The translations under genes were made by a program, and so were the position numbers. From Candidatus Entotheonellaceae bacterium (GTDB lineage: Bacteria; Tectomicrobia; Entotheonellia; Entotheonellales; Entotheonellaceae), in the NCBI GenBank assembly GCA_965238075.1, contig OZ250173.1, positions 2,400,001 to 2,464,000 of the forward strand: a stretch of 64,000 bases of DNA, written 5' to 3'. Below are positions 32,685 to 39,978 of this stretch, one piece after another (within the stretch, counting starts at the first letter, position 1; each line of letters begins with the position of its first letter). The notes beneath the pieces were generated by a model. It did not search any database and had not been told where the DNA came from. It saw only the letters and a list, made by a program, of their open reading frames with translations.

Positions 32685-34217
32685 TTAGCCGATCAGGGTC
32701 TTGGGTGCGATGCGGTACTTCTTCAACTTGTAGCCGAGTTGCCTGGGGGTGATGCCAAGTAGCATGGCGGCCCGCGTCTGCACACCGCCGCTCGTCTGCA
32801 GGGCCTCGACGAGCCGTTCGCGCTCGATCTCGGCCACCGCCTTGGGAAGCGTCGATGAACGGGTTTCGGGAGAGGGCGCCGGGGTTTCGGCTACCGCAGC
32901 CAGCGGAGGCGGGCTCAGGCTCATTGAAAGCGGCACGTCCTCGGGCGCCACGATATCCCGGCGGGTCATCACGACCATGCGCTCAACGCAATTTTCCAAC
33001 TCTCGAACGTTGCCGGGCCAGTCGTACTCGACGATCAGGTCCATGGCGGCGGACGAAATTTTCAGGTGCTTGCGATTCTCCGCGTTGAAGCGCACCAGGA
33101 AATAGCCCACCAGAGAGGGAATGTCTTCACGCCGCTCGCGCAATGAGGGCAGCACGATGGGCACGACGTGCAGGCGGTAGTAGAGGTCTTCGCGGAAGTG
33201 CCGGTGGCGCACGGCCTCTTCCAGATCGACGTTCGTGGCGGCGATGATGCGTACGTCGACCGAGATCGGGCGATGGCCGCCGACGCGCTCGAAGTTGCGC
33301 TCTTGCAGGACGCGCAGCAGCTTCACCTGCATCGCCAAGCTCATGTCGCCGATTTCGTCGAGGAACAAAGTGCCGTTATCCGCAAGCTCGAAACGGCCGC
33401 GCCGCGTTTTGATCGCCCCGGTGAAGGCGCCTTTTTCGTGCCCGAACAGTTCGCTCTCCAACAACGTTTCCGGCAACGCGGCGCAGTTGAGCTTGACGAA
33501 CGGCTGCTGGCGCCGCGCACTCAGCTTGTGCAACGCGCGGGCGACCAGTTCCTTGCCGGTGCCGCTCTCGCCGCGCAGCAGGATGGTCGAACGACTGCTG
33601 GCCGCCTGCTGAATCTCGTGCATGATGGCCTTCATACGGGCGCTGTGGCCGACGATCTGATCCGGGTTGTAGCTGGCGGAGAGCCCGGCAGCGGCGTCGC
33701 TGGTGACGTCGGGCTGCGCCTTGAGGCGTTCTTGCAGGCTGGCCGTTTGCAGGTGACAGCCAAGAACGGTGCCGACGACGTTCAGACACGTCAGAGCGGT
33801 TCCCAGCGGCACGGGCGGCTGTTTGAGGCAGAAAAAAACCATGACGCCGATGGCCTGCTGCACGCCCGTCAAAGGCGTGGACAGGACCATCCCCTCGGAC
33901 GTTCGGCCTGGCCGGGAGCCGGGAAGCACCGTGTGGCGGGCAGTGGCTTCGCCGTGGGCCTCAACGCCATCAACGAGTTCCCGCCCCATTTGAATGATTT
34001 GTCTCTGATCATCCCCGCAAGCCCACTCGTGCTGCCGTTTGGGCGAGGCGTCGGACAAGACGATGGCGCCGCCGCGGGCGCCCAGCACCTCGGTCAGCGT
34101 GTGCAGAGCGCGGTCGAGGGTGGTGAATGCGTTGCGGCTGCTGCGCACCAGATGCGCGATCTGTTCGAGTCGTTGCATGGGCCCGTTGAGCGGTTCAGAG
34201 CCAGCCGATTTTGCCAT
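32685..34217 (-). CDS. Sigma-54-dependent activator (GAF-like + AAA + Fis HTH; NifA-like architecture)
   Basis: GESGTGKE, ESELFGHEKGAFTGA, FLDEIG, REDLYYRL, WPGNVREL, C-terminal HTH; GGAGG RBS. Confidence 0.93.
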   Translation of the reverse strand: MAKSAGSEPLNGPMQRLEQIAHLVRSSRNAFTTLDRALHTLTEVLGARGGAIVLSDASPKRQHEWACGDDQRQIIQMGRELVDGVEAHGEATARHTVLPGSRPGRTSEGMVLSTPLTGVQQAIGVMVFFCLKQPPVPLGTALTCLNVVGTVLGCHLQTASLQERLKAQPDVTSDAAAGLSASYNPDQIVGHSARMKAIMHEIQQAASSRSTILLRGESGTGKELVARALHKLSARRQQPFVKLNCAALPETLLESELFGHEKGAFTGAIKTRRGRFELADNGTLFLDEIGDMSLAMQVKLLRVLQERNFERVGGHRPISVDVRIIAATNVDLEEAVRHRHFREDLYYRLHVVPIVLPSLRERREDIPSLVGYFLVRFNAENRKHLKISSAAMDLIVEYDWPGNVRELENCVERMVVMTRRDIVAPEDVPLSMSLSPPPLAAVAETPAPSPETRSSTLPKAVAEIERERLVEALQTSGGVQTRAAMLLGITPRQLGYKLKKYRIAPKTLIG

Positions 34218-34337
34218 TCTGTTAACCTCCCCCGGCAGAAGGTTCTTCAATACTGTACGCCCAATGGCATACACGTTGTTAGGGTGGAGGTCAAGCGCCG
34301 CGGGCGGTTTTCGCGTGTCGGCCCTTGTTGCATTTGC

Positions 34338-34352
34338 GCGGCAATCGTGCCA
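34338..34352 (-). promoter_or_regulatory. Possible sigma-54 -24/-12 promoter
   Basis: TGGCACGATTGCCGC on the minus strand: GG and GC correctly spaced, TT replaced by CC. Confidence 0.35.
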
Positions 34353-34398
34353 CGGTCGGTTCCGGCGAAATGATACCCCGTGAGTCTGTGGAGCGAGT

Positions 34399-35127
34399 AT
34401 GCGGAACTACGATGCGGTATTTTTCGATGCGGCGAATACCCTCCTGTATCCCTATCCATCCGTGGGCGCCGTCTACGCCGAGGTGGCCGCGCGGTATGGC
34501 GTAACGACGACGGCTGATGCCGTGCAGGCGGCCTTCCGCCGGTCGTGGGCCGAGGCCAACGCGGCCGCCGATAGCGACCCGGTGCGCTACGGTGTCGGCG
34601 AACCCGACGGGCGCCGTTTCTGGCACGCCTTGGTGCACGCTACTTTTGCGAAGATCGAGCTGCCCAAGGATTTCGAGGCGTTCTTCGATGAGTTGTACTG
34701 GCTCTTTTCGCAACCGACCGTCTGGCGGCTTTACCCGGAATGCCTCGCGGTGCTTCAAACCCTGCGCCAGCGGGGGTACACCGTCGGCGTTATTTCCAAC
34801 TGGGACATCCGGCTGCTAGACCTGTTGCATGGCCTGGGGCTGATGGCCTGTGTGCAGCACGTCAACATCTCCGCCGTGGTCGGTTGGGAGAAGCCGCACG
34901 GCAATATTTTCGCGCACGCCCTCGACGCCATTGGCGTGGCTCCCGTGCGCGCCGTGCATGTTGGGGATAGCCTGCACGCCGACGTGCACGGCGCGCGGCA
35001 AGCCGGCATGCAGCCGCTGTGGCTGCGACGGGACGACGATGCGCACCGCGATGGTGTGTCCGGAGATGATGAGGTGATTCACGACCTCAATGGCGTCCTC
35101 GATTGGCTGGCGAAGCATGACGCGTAG
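34399..35127 (+). CDS. HAD-IA family hydrolase (REG-2-like)
   Basis: FFDAANTL, VISNWD, EKPH, HVGDSLHADV. Confidence 0.9.
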   Translation: MRNYDAVFFDAANTLLYPYPSVGAVYAEVAARYGVTTTADAVQAAFRRSWAEANAAADSDPVRYGVGEPDGRRFWHALVHATFAKIELPKDFEAFFDELYWLFSQPTVWRLYPECLAVLQTLRQRGYTVGVISNWDIRLLDLLHGLGLMACVQHVNISAVVGWEKPHGNIFAHALDAIGVAPVRAVHVGDSLHADVHGARQAGMQPLWLRRDDDAHRDGVSGDDEVIHDLNGVLDWLAKHDA

Positions 35128-35312
35128 CATGCGTTATCCACTGTCCACCGAACTTGCGGCCAGTTGCGCCGCCCAATGCCCCAAAGCGTGATTCCGGCAC
35201 GTTGCGCCATCCAGCGCCTGTTTGGTATTGTTACCGCACTTTCCGCATCCGCATTTGAACGCATCGGCAATGGGCTGTTTGGCTCGACGGACAGCACTGT
35301 TAGGAGTTACGT

Positions 35313-36503
35313 ATGGCTAAGACGCAGCAAGATTTTCTTGTCGCGGCGCGGCAGGAAATCCCGGAAGTGAGCGTGCAGGAGGTGCAGGAACGCGGCCAGC
35401 CCGGTGACGACTTTGTGCTCCTGGACGTACGCGAGAACGACGAGGTGCGCGCCGGCTACATCGACGGGGCGGTCGCCATTCCGCGCGGGTTTCTCGAATT
35501 TCAAGTGGCCAGCAAGGTGCCGCAGACCGACAAGGAAATAATCGTTTACTGTGCGGGTGGCGCTCGCTCGCTGCTGGCGGCTCAGGTGCTGCGCTCAATG
35601 GGGTATGAAAACGTGTCGTCGATGGCCGGCGGCGTTACCCGCTGGAAGGATGCCGGGTTTCCCGTTCAGCGGGACCGGCAGCTCAGTGCGGAGCAGCTCG
35701 AGCGCTACAGCCGGCATTTCCTATTGTCCCAGATCGGCGAAAAGGGACAGGGGAAACTCCTGGACGCCAAGGTCCTGCTGGTTGGCGCCGGCGGCCTCGG
35801 TTCGCCCGCCGCGCTGTATCTCGCCGCCGCGGGTGTCGGCACGCTCGGCCTGGTGGATGCCGACGTGGTGGATCTGTCCAACCTGCAGCGCCAGGTGCTG
35901 CACAGCAACGACCGCATCGGCATGCCCAAAACCGAGTCGGGCAAGATTGCCATCAACGCGATCAACCCGGACGTCAACGTGCAGGCCCACAACATGCGAC
36001 TGACGACCGATAACGTCCTGGACCTGTTCGCCGAGTACGACATCATCGTCGATGGCTGCGACAACTTCCCGACGCGGTATCTGGTCAACGACGCCGCGGT
36101 GTTGGCGCGCAAGCCCGTGGTGCACGGCAGTATTTTCCAGTTTGAGGGACAGGCGAGCGTGTTCAAGCCACCTGAAGGGCCGTGCTATCGTTGCCTGTTT
36201 CCCACGCCGCCGCCGCCGGGGCTGGTGCCCTCGTGAAGCGAGGCCGGCGTCCTGGGAGTTTTGCCCGGGGTCATTGGTGTGGTGCAGGCGACGGAAACCG
36301 TGAAGCTCATCGTCGGACAGGGAGAACCCCTGGTCGGCCGCCTGCTGATGTACGACTCGTTGGCTATGACGTTCCGCGAAATCCGCCTGCGGCGCGATCC
36401 GAATTGCCCGCTGTGCGGCGACAACCCTACCATCACGGAGTTGGTCAATTACGAGGAGCTTTGTGGTCTTGCCGCTCCGGAACCGGTGGGTGTGGGTGGT
36501 TAA
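35313..36503 (+). CDS. moeB: Rhodanese + MoeB/ThiF (E1-like) fusion; probable selenoprotein (Sec308)
   Basis: Rhodanese YCAGGARS; RYSRH, GAGGLG, DLSNLQRQ, CYRC. In-frame TGA at 36234-36236 in PPPGLVPS*SEAGVLG; the same frame continues to CPLC and TAA at 36503. Confidence 0.9.
36237..36278 (+). promoter_or_regulatory. Candidate bacterial SECIS hairpin
   Basis: CCTGGG-AGTTTTG-CCCGGG stem-loop; the loop begins 20 nt after UGA with G at loop position 2. Confidence 0.65.
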
Positions 36504-36517
36504 GACGTACTGTTGAA

Positions 36518-36569
36518 CCAAAGGAAAGGGCCGGCGTGGGAAGTTACCCACGCCGGCCCTTTCCTTTGG
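36518..36569. terminator. Perfect 23-bp inverted repeat, likely bidirectional terminator
   Basis: ccaaaggaaagggccggcgtggg-aagtta-cccacgccggccctttcctttgg between convergent genes. Confidence 0.8.
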
Positions 36570-36591
36570 CGCCGAGAACGTCCGTCTTCGG

Positions 36592-36942
36592 CTATTGCCA
36601 CGTTCCTTTCACGCAGCGCCCGCAGACCGCATTCGTCGATCCGTCCGGTTTGTGAATCGTCAGTCCGGTGGCGTCGCAGCCGATGCCGCAGAGGAAGCCG
36701 CCACCGAAGCCAACGCACATGAGGCACTCGGTGTCACCCTTGCCGAGTTCGTGGTTGTTGTCCAGCCACTCCTGGAAAATATCGCTCGTGTCGGGTTTCT
36801 GCTCTTTTTCCTGAGTCGCTGCCGGAACGGCCGCGGGTTCATCCTTCGGCGTCTCCTCAGCGTGGCCGCTGATCGCTAAAGCGCCGGCAATGGCAACGGC
36901 CAGGGCAACCTGCACCAAAACGGTGTACAGTTTCCTTTTCAT
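36592..36942 (-). CDS. Small secreted Cys-rich hypothetical protein
   Basis: MKRK + hydrophobic signal ending GHA; acidic linker; CLMC, CGIGC, CGRC; AGGTG RBS. Confidence 0.7.
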   Translation of the reverse strand: MKRKLYTVLVQVALAVAIAGALAISGHAEETPKDEPAAVPAATQEKEQKPDTSDIFQEWLDNNHELGKGDTECLMCVGFGGGFLCGIGCDATGLTIHKPDGSTNAVCGRCVKGTWQ

Positions 36943-37168
36943 CTTCACACCTGTTAACCAACGATTGTTCGTGTACCCGTAGGCGGTTGCCGAACGGGCG
37001 GTCCACCGCATTGTCCGCCATCCGAAACGCTCACGCCAACGATATTATTTCTCGCCGTCCGGTTGGCCCTTGACAGGCCGCGGGGCTTCTGGCTAGATGC
37101 GCCGCCGGTTCGCACGGCTGGGCGATTTGTTACCAACCCGTACCGATTTGCTTAAGGAGTTCGCACGC

Positions 37169-38272
37169 ATGCGCGCAAAGGCCGCCATTCTCTACGAAGC
37201 TGGTACGCCCTTACGGTTTGAAGAAGTCGAAGTCGCCCCGCCGCAAGCCGGTGAGGTGCTGGTGCGGTTGTACGCCGGTGGCGTGTGCCACAGCGACCTG
37301 CACGTCATGAAGGGCGATCTGCTGATGCCCATGCCGATCATCCTCGGGCACGAGGGGTCGGGCGTGATCGAGGACGTCGGCGCGGGCGTCAAATCGGTGC
37401 AGCCCGGCGACCACGTCATTCCCATCTGGCGGGTTTCCTGCGGCACGTGCGAGTACTGCACCGGCGGGCGACCGGCGCTGTGCGACGTGGGCACCGAGAT
37501 GCGCGTCACCGGGCTGATGGAAGACGGCACGACGCGCTTTTCCGCGGCGGGCCAGCCGGTGCGGCACTTCGCGGGAGTGTCGAGTTTTTCCGAGTTGTCC
37601 ACCATGCCAGAAGCCGCGGTGCTCAAGATTCCCAAGGATTTTCCGCTGGATAAGGCGGCATTGCTGGGTTGTGGCGTGATAACCGGGGTCGGGGCCGTGG
37701 CGAACGGCGCGCGAGTCAAGATGGGCAGCACAGTGGCGGTATTCGGCTGCGGCGGCATCGGGCTGAACGCCGTGCAGGGCGCCCGCATCGTCGGGGCCCG
37801 GCGTATCATCGCGGTCGACGTGGCCGAGCAGAAGCTGGAATACGCCCGCACCATGGGCGCGACGCACACCGTTAACGCTGCCGACGTGGACGCCGTCGCT
37901 GCCATCAAGGATCTCACCGACGGGCGCGGCGTGGATTATGCGTTCGAGGCCATCGGCATCACCAAAACGATCGAGCAAGCGTACGCGGCTACGAAGAAAA
38001 TGGGCACCTGTGTGGTCATCGGTGTCACCCGCGCCGATGTGCGGGTCAGCATCAACGCCAACGAGATGGTGTATGCCGAGAAGACACTGATGGGCTCGCT
38101 GTACGGCTCGGCGCGGCCCAAGATCGATCTGCTGCACCTGATGGAGATGTACCGCTCGGGCGACCTGTTGCTGGATGAGCTGCTCACCCGCACCTGGCCG
38201 CTGGCGGAAATCAACGACGCCTACGCGGCGCTCGAACGCGGCGAGGTGGCGCGCAGCCTGGTGCTGGCATGA
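37169..38272 (+). CDS. Zn-dependent alcohol dehydrogenase (class III-like MDR)
   Basis: GVCHSD, GHEG, CGTCEYC...C, LLGCGVITG, GCGGIG. Confidence 0.95.
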   Translation: MRAKAAILYEAGTPLRFEEVEVAPPQAGEVLVRLYAGGVCHSDLHVMKGDLLMPMPIILGHEGSGVIEDVGAGVKSVQPGDHVIPIWRVSCGTCEYCTGGRPALCDVGTEMRVTGLMEDGTTRFSAAGQPVRHFAGVSSFSELSTMPEAAVLKIPKDFPLDKAALLGCGVITGVGAVANGARVKMGSTVAVFGCGGIGLNAVQGARIVGARRIIAVDVAEQKLEYARTMGATHTVNAADVDAVAAIKDLTDGRGVDYAFEAIGITKTIEQAYAATKKMGTCVVIGVTRADVRVSINANEMVYAEKTLMGSLYGSARPKIDLLHLMEMYRSGDLLLDELLTRTWPLAEINDAYAALERGEVARSLVLA

Positions 38273-39978
38273 ACCGCGCCACCATAGCCCGCCGAGGAAA
38301 CCCATCTGCCATGCCCGCCGAGATGCGACAAACGATGCGCCAACGCCTGCTGGCTGAACGCGGCGCGGTGGTGAAGGAAGCGGGCGCCGTGCGCCTGCGC
38401 TTCGCGTTGGCGTATCCGCACACCTACCATATCGGCATGTCAAACCTGGGCCTGCAGACGATCTACCGGCTGGTCAACCAGCGCCCGGACACCCTGTGCG
38501 AGCGTGTCTTTCTGCCTGATCCCGCCGACATCAGCCGCCACGGCTATGCCAACGTACCGTTGGTTTCCGTCGAATCGCAGCGGCCCGTCCGTGATTTTCA
38601 CCTGGTTGGTTTTTCGGTGTCGTACGAGAACGATTACCTGCATCTGCTGCACATGCTGGCGATGCTCCGCATTCCGCTGCTGGCCGCCGAGCGCGATGAG
38701 CGCCACCCACTGATCCTCCTCGGCGGCGCCGTCACCTACCTCAACCCGGAGCCCTTGGCGGATTTCGTCGATCTGATGATCATCGGAGATGGCGAGGACG
38801 CGCTCAACGAGTACCTGGACTTGGCGCACGACACCCTTGGCCAGCCGCGCCGCGCCCACCTGCGCCAGGCGGCGGAAATTCCCGGTGTCTACGTTCCGGC
38901 CCTGCACGACCGGTCCGGGGACGTCAGCCCCATACCGCCGCGCAAAATCGCCGATCTGGCCCAATGGCCGGCGTATTCCACCGTTCTCACCGACGAGACC
39001 GAATTCAGCGGCTCGCTGCTTATCGAGATTACGCGCGGATGCCCCTTCAAGTGCCGATTCTGCACGGTTGGCTACGTCTATCCCAAGTTTCGCCAACTGC
39101 CGGGTGAAATGGTTCTGGACATCGTGACCGCCCAGCAGCGGCGCGACCGCGATAACGGCCTGGCACCGGTCGGAAAGGTGGGTTTGATCAGTTCCGCCAC
39201 CGGTGATTACCGCGCCCTGCCTATGGTGGCGCAGGGGCTGGTGGACATGGGCGTAGGTATCGGCATCTCGTCACTGCGCATGGACCGCATGCCCGACGTG
39301 CTGATTGATTGCATGGTGCGCAGCGGCGTCCGCTCCTGCACCGTCGCCCCCGAGGCGGGTTCCGAGCGTCTGCGGCAGCTCATCCGCAAGGAAATGAGCG
39401 AGGCGGTCATTCTCGAGGGCGTGGAACGCCTGCTGGCCCACGGCGTGCGCGACCTCAAGCTCTATTCCATGATCGGCCTGCCCACCGAAACCGACGATGA
39501 CGTGCAGGAATTGCTGGCCCTGGTCTTGAAGATCTGGGCGCTCATGAAAAGCTACGGCCGTCCCCGCGGCGCCTTGGGAACCCTGACCCTGAGCGTCAAT
39601 CCGTTCATCCCCAAACCCGCCACGCCCCTGCAATGGTGCGCCATGGCCCCCCAGCGCGACGTCAAGGCGAAACTTCACACCCTGCGCCAGGCCCTGCGCC
39701 GTGAATCCTCCATCCGCCTCCAGCACGGCAGTCTCAAAGACGATTACCTCGAAGCCATCCTCGCCCGCGGCGACCGCCAGCTCGGCGCCTTCCTCCTCGA
39801 AACCCATCGTCAACGCGGCAACTGGCCCCGCGCCGCCAAGGTCCTCGGCTTCGACGCCATCGACTGGGTCTGCCAACCGTTGTCTCGTGACGCCATCCTG
39901 CCCTGGGATTTTCTGGAAACCGACCGCCAACGCCAGCGCCTGCACCGTGAGCACGACCGTGCCCTGGCCGTGCCGTAG
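38269..39978 (+). CDS. Radical SAM protein with B12-binding-like N-terminus
   Basis: YPHTYHIGMSNLG, CERVF, RGCPFKCRFC, APEAGSERLR, MIGLPTET, FIPKPATP. Confidence 0.88.
   Translation: MNRATIARRGNPSAMPAEMRQTMRQRLLAERGAVVKEAGAVRLRFALAYPHTYHIGMSNLGLQTIYRLVNQRPDTLCERVFLPDPADISRHGYANVPLVSVESQRPVRDFHLVGFSVSYENDYLHLLHMLAMLRIPLLAAERDERHPLILLGGAVTYLNPEPLADFVDLMIIGDGEDALNEYLDLAHDTLGQPRRAHLRQAAEIPGVYVPALHDRSGDVSPIPPRKIADLAQWPAYSTVLTDETEFSGSLLIEITRGCPFKCRFCTVGYVYPKFRQLPGEMVLDIVTAQQRRDRDNGLAPVGKVGLISSATGDYRALPMVAQGLVDMGVGIGISSLRMDRMPDVLIDCMVRSGVRSCTVAPEAGSERLRQLIRKEMSEAVILEGVERLLAHGVRDLKLYSMIGLPTETDDDVQELLALVLKIWALMKSYGRPRGALGTLTLSVNPFIPKPATPLQWCAMAPQRDVKAKLHTLRQALRRESSIRLQHGSLKDDYLEAILARGDRQLGAFLLETHRQRGNWPRAAKVLGFDAIDWVCQPLSRDAILPWDFLETDRQRQRLHREHDRALAVP

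Follow-up and report, generated by a model that had tools for sequence, protein, structure and literature searches.

A rhodanese-MoeB/ThiF fusion gene of a Candidatus Entotheonellaceae bacterium very probably encodes selenocysteine at the crossover-loop position

We analysed a stretch of 64,000 nucleotides from a Candidatus Entotheonellaceae bacterium (assembly GCA_965238075.1, contig OZ250173.1, positions 2,400,001 to 2,464,000 of the forward strand), referred to here as the window and numbered from its first letter. The subject of this report is a rhodanese-MoeB/ThiF gene of 396 codons on the plus strand at 35313-36503, which starts with ATG at 35313, ends with TAA at 36501-36503 and contains an in-frame TGA at 36234-36236. 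A preliminary description, made from the sequence alone, had proposed that two listed open reading frames (ORFs) form one frame split only by this TGA and that the TGA encodes selenocysteine (Sec). Translation of the window confirmed the single frame. The 307-aa ORF at 35313-36236 and the 80-aa ORF, listed from a TTG at 36261, have a common frame with no further stop between them, the TGA is the sole in-frame stop within 35313-36503 before the TAA, and the peptide around it reads ...CYRCLFPTPPPPGLVPS[TGA]SEAGVLGVLPG.... A putative Shine-Dalgarno-like AGGAG, read off the sequence, is located at 35302-35306 on the plus strand, 6 nt ahead of the ATG. Translated with TGA as selenocysteine (U), the gene specifies one protein of 396 residues, and the comparisons described below suggest that UGA 308 very probably encodes selenocysteine and that this is a genuine selenoprotein gene.

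The read-through protein has an N-terminal rhodanese domain (residues 26-113, positions 35388-35651; Pfam PF00581, E = 4.6e-17) followed by a ThiF/MoeB adenylation, or E1-like, domain (residues 132-366, positions 35706-36410; Pfam PF00899, E = 7e-86, 287.7 bits compared to a cut-off of 28.1; phmmer against E. coli MoeB 1JW9_B, E = 5e-60), both on the plus strand. The rhodanese active-site residue, Cys80, is encoded by TGT at 35550-35552 (plus strand) within the loop CAGGARS, and Y79, C80, A81, G82, G83, R85 and S86 are invariant among nine Sec forms. Two CxxC motifs had been described on either side of the TGA, and both align with the CxxC motifs of 1JW9_B: CYRC (C291/C294, 36183-36194, plus strand) with MoeB C172/C175, and CPLC (C365/C368, 36405-36416, plus strand) with MoeB C244/C247. 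Both motifs are invariant in the homologue alignments, as are the Gly-rich nucleotide loop G158-A-G-G-L-G163 and D250 (MoeB D130, within DCTDN), which also align to 1JW9_B. The roles of the Gly-rich loop, of the Mg-binding Asp and of the CxxC motifs are those that we take these elements to have, partly from the literature and partly from general knowledge of the fold.

At the level of protein families, the NCBIfam model NF006444, a MoeB form with an N-terminal rhodanese domain, matched the read-through protein with 574.3 bits against a cut-off of 449 and was covered from position 5 to position 386 of its 387. The 307-aa half or the 80-aa half alone is an incomplete member of NF006444. The MoeZ model NF005902 gave 431 bits, under its cut-off of 647. 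Since the rhodanese domain is N-terminal here, the E1-then-rhodanese domain order of Uba4/MOCS3/MoeZ-type proteins is not found. The protein plausibly works like these fusions yet stands outside their architecture.

The TGA (36234-36236, plus strand; residue 308) had been assigned to the cysteine of the E1-like crossover loop. This assignment was upheld by phmmer alignments to PDB sequences, in which U308 pairs with Cys187 of E. coli MoeB (1JW9_B) and, in ThiF and Uba4, with the Cys of the crossover loop; MoeB residue numbers were counted from the printed phmmer alignment to 1JW9_B. An AlphaFold model built from a 13-row alignment (mean predicted local distance difference test (pLDDT) 78.6; predicted template modelling score (pTM) 0.63) gave pLDDT values below 50 for residues 306-312, as would be expected of a flexible crossover loop.

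Conservation of the TGA was followed in the genome itself and its relatives and in database loci. A full-length orthologue with exactly one TGA was found in 13 of 41 genomes (own plus relatives), and the TGA column was identical in all 13 of these orthologues. Among the best 80 loci from one-genome-per-species contigs, the column was TGA in 2, TGC in 61 and TGT in 17 by local alignment; among the 79 alignable of the best 80 metagenome loci, it was TGA in 18, TGC in 49 and TGT in 12. The pairing of Cys and TGA at this column, which had been suggested as a check, is thus seen in the database, where 139 of the 159 aligned loci carry TGC or TGT. In total, several lineages contribute 33 TGA-bearing sequences (25 when counted as distinct 48-mers), with 61-99% identity to the window protein. 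L030, in which the motif was missed, stands outside the 13-orthologue column counts, L192 is cut short and unaligned, and L035 (99% identical) stands outside the trees. The nearest named record, also 99% identical, is labelled uncultured Candidatus Entotheonella sp. MAG. Coding sequence is maintained after the TGA: 43 columns from 309 to 372, including the second CxxC, are invariant in nine Sec forms, and conservation after the TGA matches conservation before it.

The distribution of Sec and Cys forms was examined on two trees. The first, of 95 rows, did not exclude a single Sec origin. The second comprised 129 rows (quick search, LG+G4, SH-aLRT support only, unrooted, with 45 rows of the actinobacterial/chloroflexal half left out), and on it the Sec label changes at least four times. 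Sec group 1 encloses five Cys forms (support 95) and Sec group 2 encloses three (support 97). Because Cys forms are nested in both Sec groups, Sec and Cys appear to interchange repeatedly; whether losses or gains took place is read from the nesting alone. The nested Cys genes come from metagenomes and are 68-77% (L131-L135) and about 61-63% (L175, L177, L206) identical to the window protein. Their hairpin codons have drifted, for example from GGA GTT to GGC GTG. The nesting suggests that these genes are recent Sec-to-Cys reversions.

The hairpin in question follows the TGA as a selenocysteine insertion sequence (SECIS)-like element at 36246-36272 on the plus strand. Its upper stem pairs CCTGGG (36251-36256) with CCCGGG (36264-36269) around the loop AGTTTTG (36257-36263), and the 6-bp stem can be extended by three pairs (36246-36248 with 36270-36272, plus strand) past a GU bulge at 36249-36250. 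The passages on bacterial SECIS elements in PMC13188914 give a loop of 3-9 nt that has a G among its first two bases, a stem of 4-16 bp, a distance of 16-37 nt from the UGA and a minimum free energy of -7.5 kcal/mol or lower. The window hairpin agrees with all four rules, having a 7-nt loop (AGUUUUG), a 6-bp stem, a UGA-loop distance of 20 nt and an energy of about -11.6 kcal/mol, and the rules as coded here are passed by all nine distinct Sec forms. The claim of a SECIS-like hairpin stands to this extent; as a diagnostic sign on its own the hairpin does not hold, as 37 of 84 Cys homologues pass as well. It turns up in Cys forms because VLGVLPG is an invariant peptide whose GC-rich codons give a self-complementary sequence (CUGGG...CCNGG), and a hairpin shared with Cys homologues is weak evidence by its presence. 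In GC-rich Cys-form MoeB genes (L036-L114, L131-L206), a hairpin lies within the 30 nt that begin 9 nt past the Cys codon, typically as GUGCUGGGC-GUGCU-GCCCGGCAU. Hairpin stability was tried as a discriminator and dropped, given the z-score against shuffled sequences and the similar Sec and Cys energies reported below. A scan of 36150-36400 against Rfam at E <= 10 returned no SECIS family, only five chance-level matches of 12-16 bits, far under the cut-offs.

The codons that form the hairpin are more informative. The loop codons GGA GTT TTG had been called unusual for this gene, and they are minor codons among 1003 long ORFs of the genome (GGA, 8.8% of Gly; GTT, 14% of Val; TTG, 14% of Leu), with a frequency product of 0.0018; the G+C content at third codon positions of the gene is 0.79. 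Of the 25 distinct Sec forms, 10 carry GGA GTT TTR in the loop, compared to 2 of the 140 distinct Cys forms. In L012, L023 and L024, the third bases of codons +5 (Val) and +11 (Gly), which are pairing partners, co-vary and read C-G, A-U and G-C. In the Sec group from soil metagenomes, the register is shifted by one base (CCUGGG/CCCAGG, loop CGUGCU) and the CTC and CCA codons are invariant; the window hairpin differs from this group in register and loop, so that two hairpin registers can be distinguished.

Synonymous change was quantified as the fraction of differing pairs among all synonymous codon pairs, for codons +4 to +12 relative to the remaining gene. The fraction was 0.162 compared to 0.469 within Sec group 1 (n = 10) and 0.139 compared to 0.324 within Sec group 2 (n = 12). 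For the nested Cys forms, the values were 0.375 compared to 0.371 in group 2 (n = 3) and 0.133 compared to 0.183 in group 1 (n = 5, close kin). Between each Sec group and its own nested Cys forms, the hairpin codons differed more often than the rest: 0.573 against 0.459 for group 1 and 0.603 against 0.354 for group 2. Collectively, these values suggest that synonymous change over the hairpin is reduced about 2-3 fold in TGA forms only, and in these sequence comparisons this constraint is stronger evidence than the hairpin itself.

The genome has the capacity to decode such a codon. The preliminary description had asked for a search for the Sec machinery, and selA (513 bits), selB (358 bits) and selD (319 bits), each over its cut-off, were found in the one-contig genome of 3.35 Mb, with selB adjoining selA, together with a tRNA-SeC of anticodon tca. 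Across the TGA-form genomes, a strong selA match was found in 12 of 13, and the exception is a genome that is 62% complete. Two further small rhodanese-like ORFs with an in-frame TGA in the active-site loop lie outside the window on the minus strand, one at G000:C1:1342538-1342894 (context VTHUGGENR) and one at G000:C1:2660932-2661252 (context VVLYUTCPHH). A stable stem-loop follows in both cases, and the two ORFs probably encode additional selenoproteins. Most relatives also hold similar single-TGA rhodanese matches.

The TGA was also looked for in public sequencing runs, as reads with TGC or TGT at this codon had been named as a way in which the proposal could fail. In four runs, each from a different study and two of them RNA libraries, the contigs showed no difference at 36234-36236; possibly one of the four is the source sample. 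Another study's DNA contig covers 36103-36540 with 0 differences, and a contig from an RNA library (X7, record 27) covers 35748-36547, across the TGA, with 0 differences. Metatranscriptomes of two studies (runs X4, X7, X9, X13 and X15) contained 73-83% of the sampled words of 35313-36620, and runs X4, X9 and X13, which belong to one study, are labelled sponge metagenome. The locus is present in sponge-associated communities and is probably expressed there.

Several observations weigh against reading UGA 308 as selenocysteine. The difference between Sec forms and Cys forms in passing the SECIS rules (9 of 9 compared to 37 of 84; Fisher p = 0.001) was obtained from relatives that are not independent, and the related genomes are likewise non-independent samples. 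Hairpin energies were alike, with a mean of -11.6 kcal/mol over 8 distinct Sec forms and of -10.5 kcal/mol over 80 Cys forms (Mann-Whitney p = 0.37), and a 76-nt segment folded no better than its shuffled versions (z = -0.30). An earlier, cruder count over nine mixed Sec forms placed the hairpin region high, at 0.68 compared to 0.50, yet not as the top window of that count. The second RNA-library contig (X4-23; 36204-36502, 0 differences) begins only 30 nt upstream of the TGA, which narrowly misses the bridging rule applied. All of these are contigs rather than reads, in which rare variants are dropped and transcript ends are not judgeable, and an RNA library can contain DNA. In the portions of the literature on MoeB selenoproteins that were searched, protein-level proof such as 75Se labelling or mass spectrometry was not found. 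What goes beyond chance in the sequence record is the retention of TGA at a single column together with the synonymous constraint specific to TGA forms.

The content of the genome indicates what the enzyme would serve. The rhodanese-MoeB gene is the only PF00899 match over cut-off in the one-contig genome, which encodes six ThiS/MoaD-family ORFs with GG ends, followed by 0-2 extra residues or, in one case, by a longer tail. One carrier ORF lies directly ahead of MoaE, two lie directly behind xanthine-dehydrogenase-type Mo-binding subunits and one lies behind an aldehyde:ferredoxin oxidoreductase. The genome contains at least nine pterin enzymes, including six PF00384 molybdopterin-oxidoreductase matches, two xanthine-dehydrogenase-type proteins and one aldehyde:ferredoxin oxidoreductase. 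The Sec enzyme is most likely the single activator of all six carriers. The MoaD-like ORF before MoaE (G000:C1:464537-465183; also L210:3525-4183) has 11 residues past Gly-Gly (SGG-YGCSASRQNP) and overlaps the MoaE start, and three other carriers have 1-2 residues past GG; C-terminal trimming of carriers may be needed. Mo and Se were described as accumulating together in the Entotheonella fraction of Theonella conica, in the text of PMC466961 seen for this report, and a tie between this accumulation and the Sec enzyme is speculation.

Four other explanations of the TGA were considered. In other systems, the Sec pathway can load Cys at low selenium, or a near-cognate tRNA can insert Trp or Cys at UGA, and UGA 308 might likewise be read mostly as a residue other than selenocysteine, giving a complete protein with selenium in only some of its copies or in none. 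The close Cys relatives (L131-L135, L175, L177, L206) show that the enzyme functions with Cys. The full Sec machinery, however, is present and co-occurs with the TGA form, and the hairpin constraint specific to TGA forms argues for SelB-dependent decoding. We consider readthrough by another residue improbable.

A pseudogene or nonsense allele, with termination at the TGA and a 307-residue protein that has no activity or is a relic, would agree with the frame under translation table 11, which ends at 36236, and with the truncated product, which would be missing the second CxxC along with the fold's C-terminal portion. Against it stand the retention of TGA in 33 sequences of 61-99% identity, with intact and conserved coding downstream, and the RNA-library contig that spans the TGA. 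The gene is also the sole ThiF-family member of a genome that encodes MoaD/MoaE and nine or more pterin enzymes. Its most likely standing as the single activator of all the carriers makes the pseudogene reading untenable, and we regard that reading as very unlikely. A split gene, whose 307-aa and about 80-aa polypeptides would be made separately and then assembled, has the same-frame 80-aa ORF with its TTG start at 36261 in its favour. This start is not conserved: codon +9 is TTG in 8 of the 25 distinct TGA forms, CTC in 14 and TTA in 3. Moreover, the break falls exactly at the codon of an otherwise invariant Cys, and SEAGVLGV, which lies between the TGA and the TTG, is conserved, leaving two separate polypeptides with very little probability. 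An altered genetic code, with TGA as a sense codon throughout the organism, has nothing in its favour and a negligible chance of being correct; it is excluded because TGA is the commonest stop, ending 691 of the 1438 open frames that reach 400 codons or more, and is also the terminal stop of the rhodanese-MoeB gene itself in six relatives (L013, L016, L018, L020, L022 and L024), the tRNA-SeC being the only tca tRNA reported in the genome.

With UGA 308 taken as selenocysteine, the gene would encode one enzyme of 396 residues in which an N-terminal rhodanese domain, with Cys80 carrying a persulfide, is fused to a MoeB/ThiF-type E1-like adenylyltransferase. SelB and tRNA-Sec would decode UGA codon 308 as Sec, aided by the hairpin 20 nt downstream, and Sec308 would take the place of the crossover-loop cysteine. 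The enzyme would adenylate the Gly-Gly ends of the six MoaD/ThiS-type carriers and turn the carriers into thiocarboxylates, which would serve Mo/W-pterin cofactor synthesis and probably thiamin and other sulfur insertions. Two routes may be envisaged for Sec308. In the first, Sec308 would attack the carrier acyl-adenylate to give a selenoester, which the Cys80 persulfide would then take over. In the second, Sec308 would resolve the acyl persulfide between carrier and Cys80 (carrier-S-S-Cys80) through a Cys80-S-Se-Sec308 bond, freeing the thiocarboxylate. The first route follows Uba4, whose crossover-loop Cys (yeast C225) is described in the text seen of PMC6007339 as forming a thioester with the carrier that passes to the rhodanese persulfide (C397), both residues being essential. 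ThiF C184 forms an acyl disulfide with ThiS according to the part of PMC12596934 seen. A point against a selenoester comes from the statement in PMC13139853, as far as that source was seen, that MoeB C187 and ThiF C184 form no thioester with the adenylated substrate; this leaves Uba4 as the sole analogy for the selenoester step. Retention of the costly Sec suggests, we infer, that residue 308 matters in the fused subfamily. By this analogy, we give the proposed chemistry of Sec308 about an even chance of being right.

The hairpin in Cys forms bears on how selenocysteine may have been acquired. Since Cys forms already encode a SECIS-grade hairpin, we hypothesise that a single TGC/TGT-to-TGA change could create a decodable Sec codon, and the hairpin of the conserved peptide may predispose the Cys site to Sec acquisition and to easy reversion. 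A wider proposal joins these points: that Mo/W-cofactor synthesis of the lineage, and possibly every protein-thiocarboxylate pathway, runs through one selenoenzyme, that its Sec is truly catalytic and that the VLGVLPG hairpin eases Sec gain. Taken jointly, this remains tentative, and we hold it rather doubtful as a whole. If it were true, all pterin enzymes in the lineage (Entotheonella relatives) would depend on selenium supply, the crossover-loop residue would take a catalytic part in the rhodanese-MoeB fusions of bacteria, by way of a selenoester or an Se-S intermediate, unlike in textbook E. coli MoeB, and the one-base route from Cys to TGA would explain the repeated Sec/Cys switching. Standard gene callers end the gene at the TGA, so that a Mo/W-dependent genome would seem to be without a MoeB/ThiF activator, and reconstructions of the metabolism of these sponge-associated bacteria would be in error. 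Sec at the crossover loop would also be a natural probe of the disputed catalytic part that this residue plays in bacterial sulfur-carrier activators.

The surroundings of the gene were inspected as well. An inverted repeat with perfect arms of 21 bp and a loop of 6 nt (36520-36567; arms exactly complementary, fold -60 kcal/mol) begins 17 nt past the stop codon and lies between the rhodanese-MoeB gene and a putative convergent 139-aa ORF on the minus strand (36592-37011). It is probably a two-way terminator. A simple promoter/terminator scan gave no promoter for the gene and did not list this repeat. By eye, the neighbouring ORFs resemble a sigma-54-type AAA+ activator (32685-34274, minus strand), a haloacid dehalogenase (HAD)-like hydrolase (34399-35127, plus strand), a zinc alcohol dehydrogenase (37097-38272, plus strand) and a radical S-adenosylmethionine (SAM) protein (38269-39978, plus strand). 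Among the ORFs listed for 33000-39000, read by eye with no Pfam scan, no sulfur-carrier or cofactor gene and no evident MoeB partner adjoins the gene.

Sec-containing MoeB homologues had been predicted computationally before, as the preliminary description noted, and the literature searched, in the parts seen, holds only family lists. MoeB was introduced as a new selenoprotein family with 11 Sargasso Sea sequences (Zhang, Fomenko & Gladyshev 2005; PMC1088965), was counted in Global Ocean Sampling (GOS) data in 2008 at 19 Sec and 2,262 Cys sequences (PMC2398784) and is listed in reviews of 2022 and 2026 (PMC9312934, PMC13188914), as stated in the excerpts of these sources. In the same excerpts, we found no bench experiment on Sec-MoeB and no characterised Sec-containing E1-like enzyme. 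Compared through its table rows and legends, the 2005 family resembles the window gene in having an in-frame TGA in a COG0476/ThiF-type homologue, Cys in most homologues and a stem-loop thereafter, and on this basis the window gene is very probably a further member of it. Its members came from marine metagenomes, whereas the window gene comes from a complete genome in which it is the only E1-like gene. New here are the standing of the gene as sole E1-like enzyme, the RNA contigs spanning the UGA, the Sec-specific constraint, the two hairpin registers and the repeated Sec/Cys switching. Among enzymes of known structure, E. coli MoeB (PDB 1JW9/1JWA/1JWB) and ThiF (1ZFN/1ZUD) share the adenylation fold (E = 5e-60 and 3e-58) and both CxxC motifs with the window protein. 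MoeB C187 and ThiF C184 occupy the Sec308 column, but both enzymes have Cys there and have no rhodanese domain. Like the window protein, the Uba4/MOCS3-type enzymes (PDB 6YUB; PMC6007339, as seen in part) combine E1-like and rhodanese domains in one chain. In contrast to the window protein, with its N-terminal rhodanese domain and Sec, they are eukaryotic, carry the rhodanese domain at the C-terminus, use Cys and serve a single carrier, Urm1. By analogy, Uba4 would be the best functional model for Sec308 acting together with Cys80.

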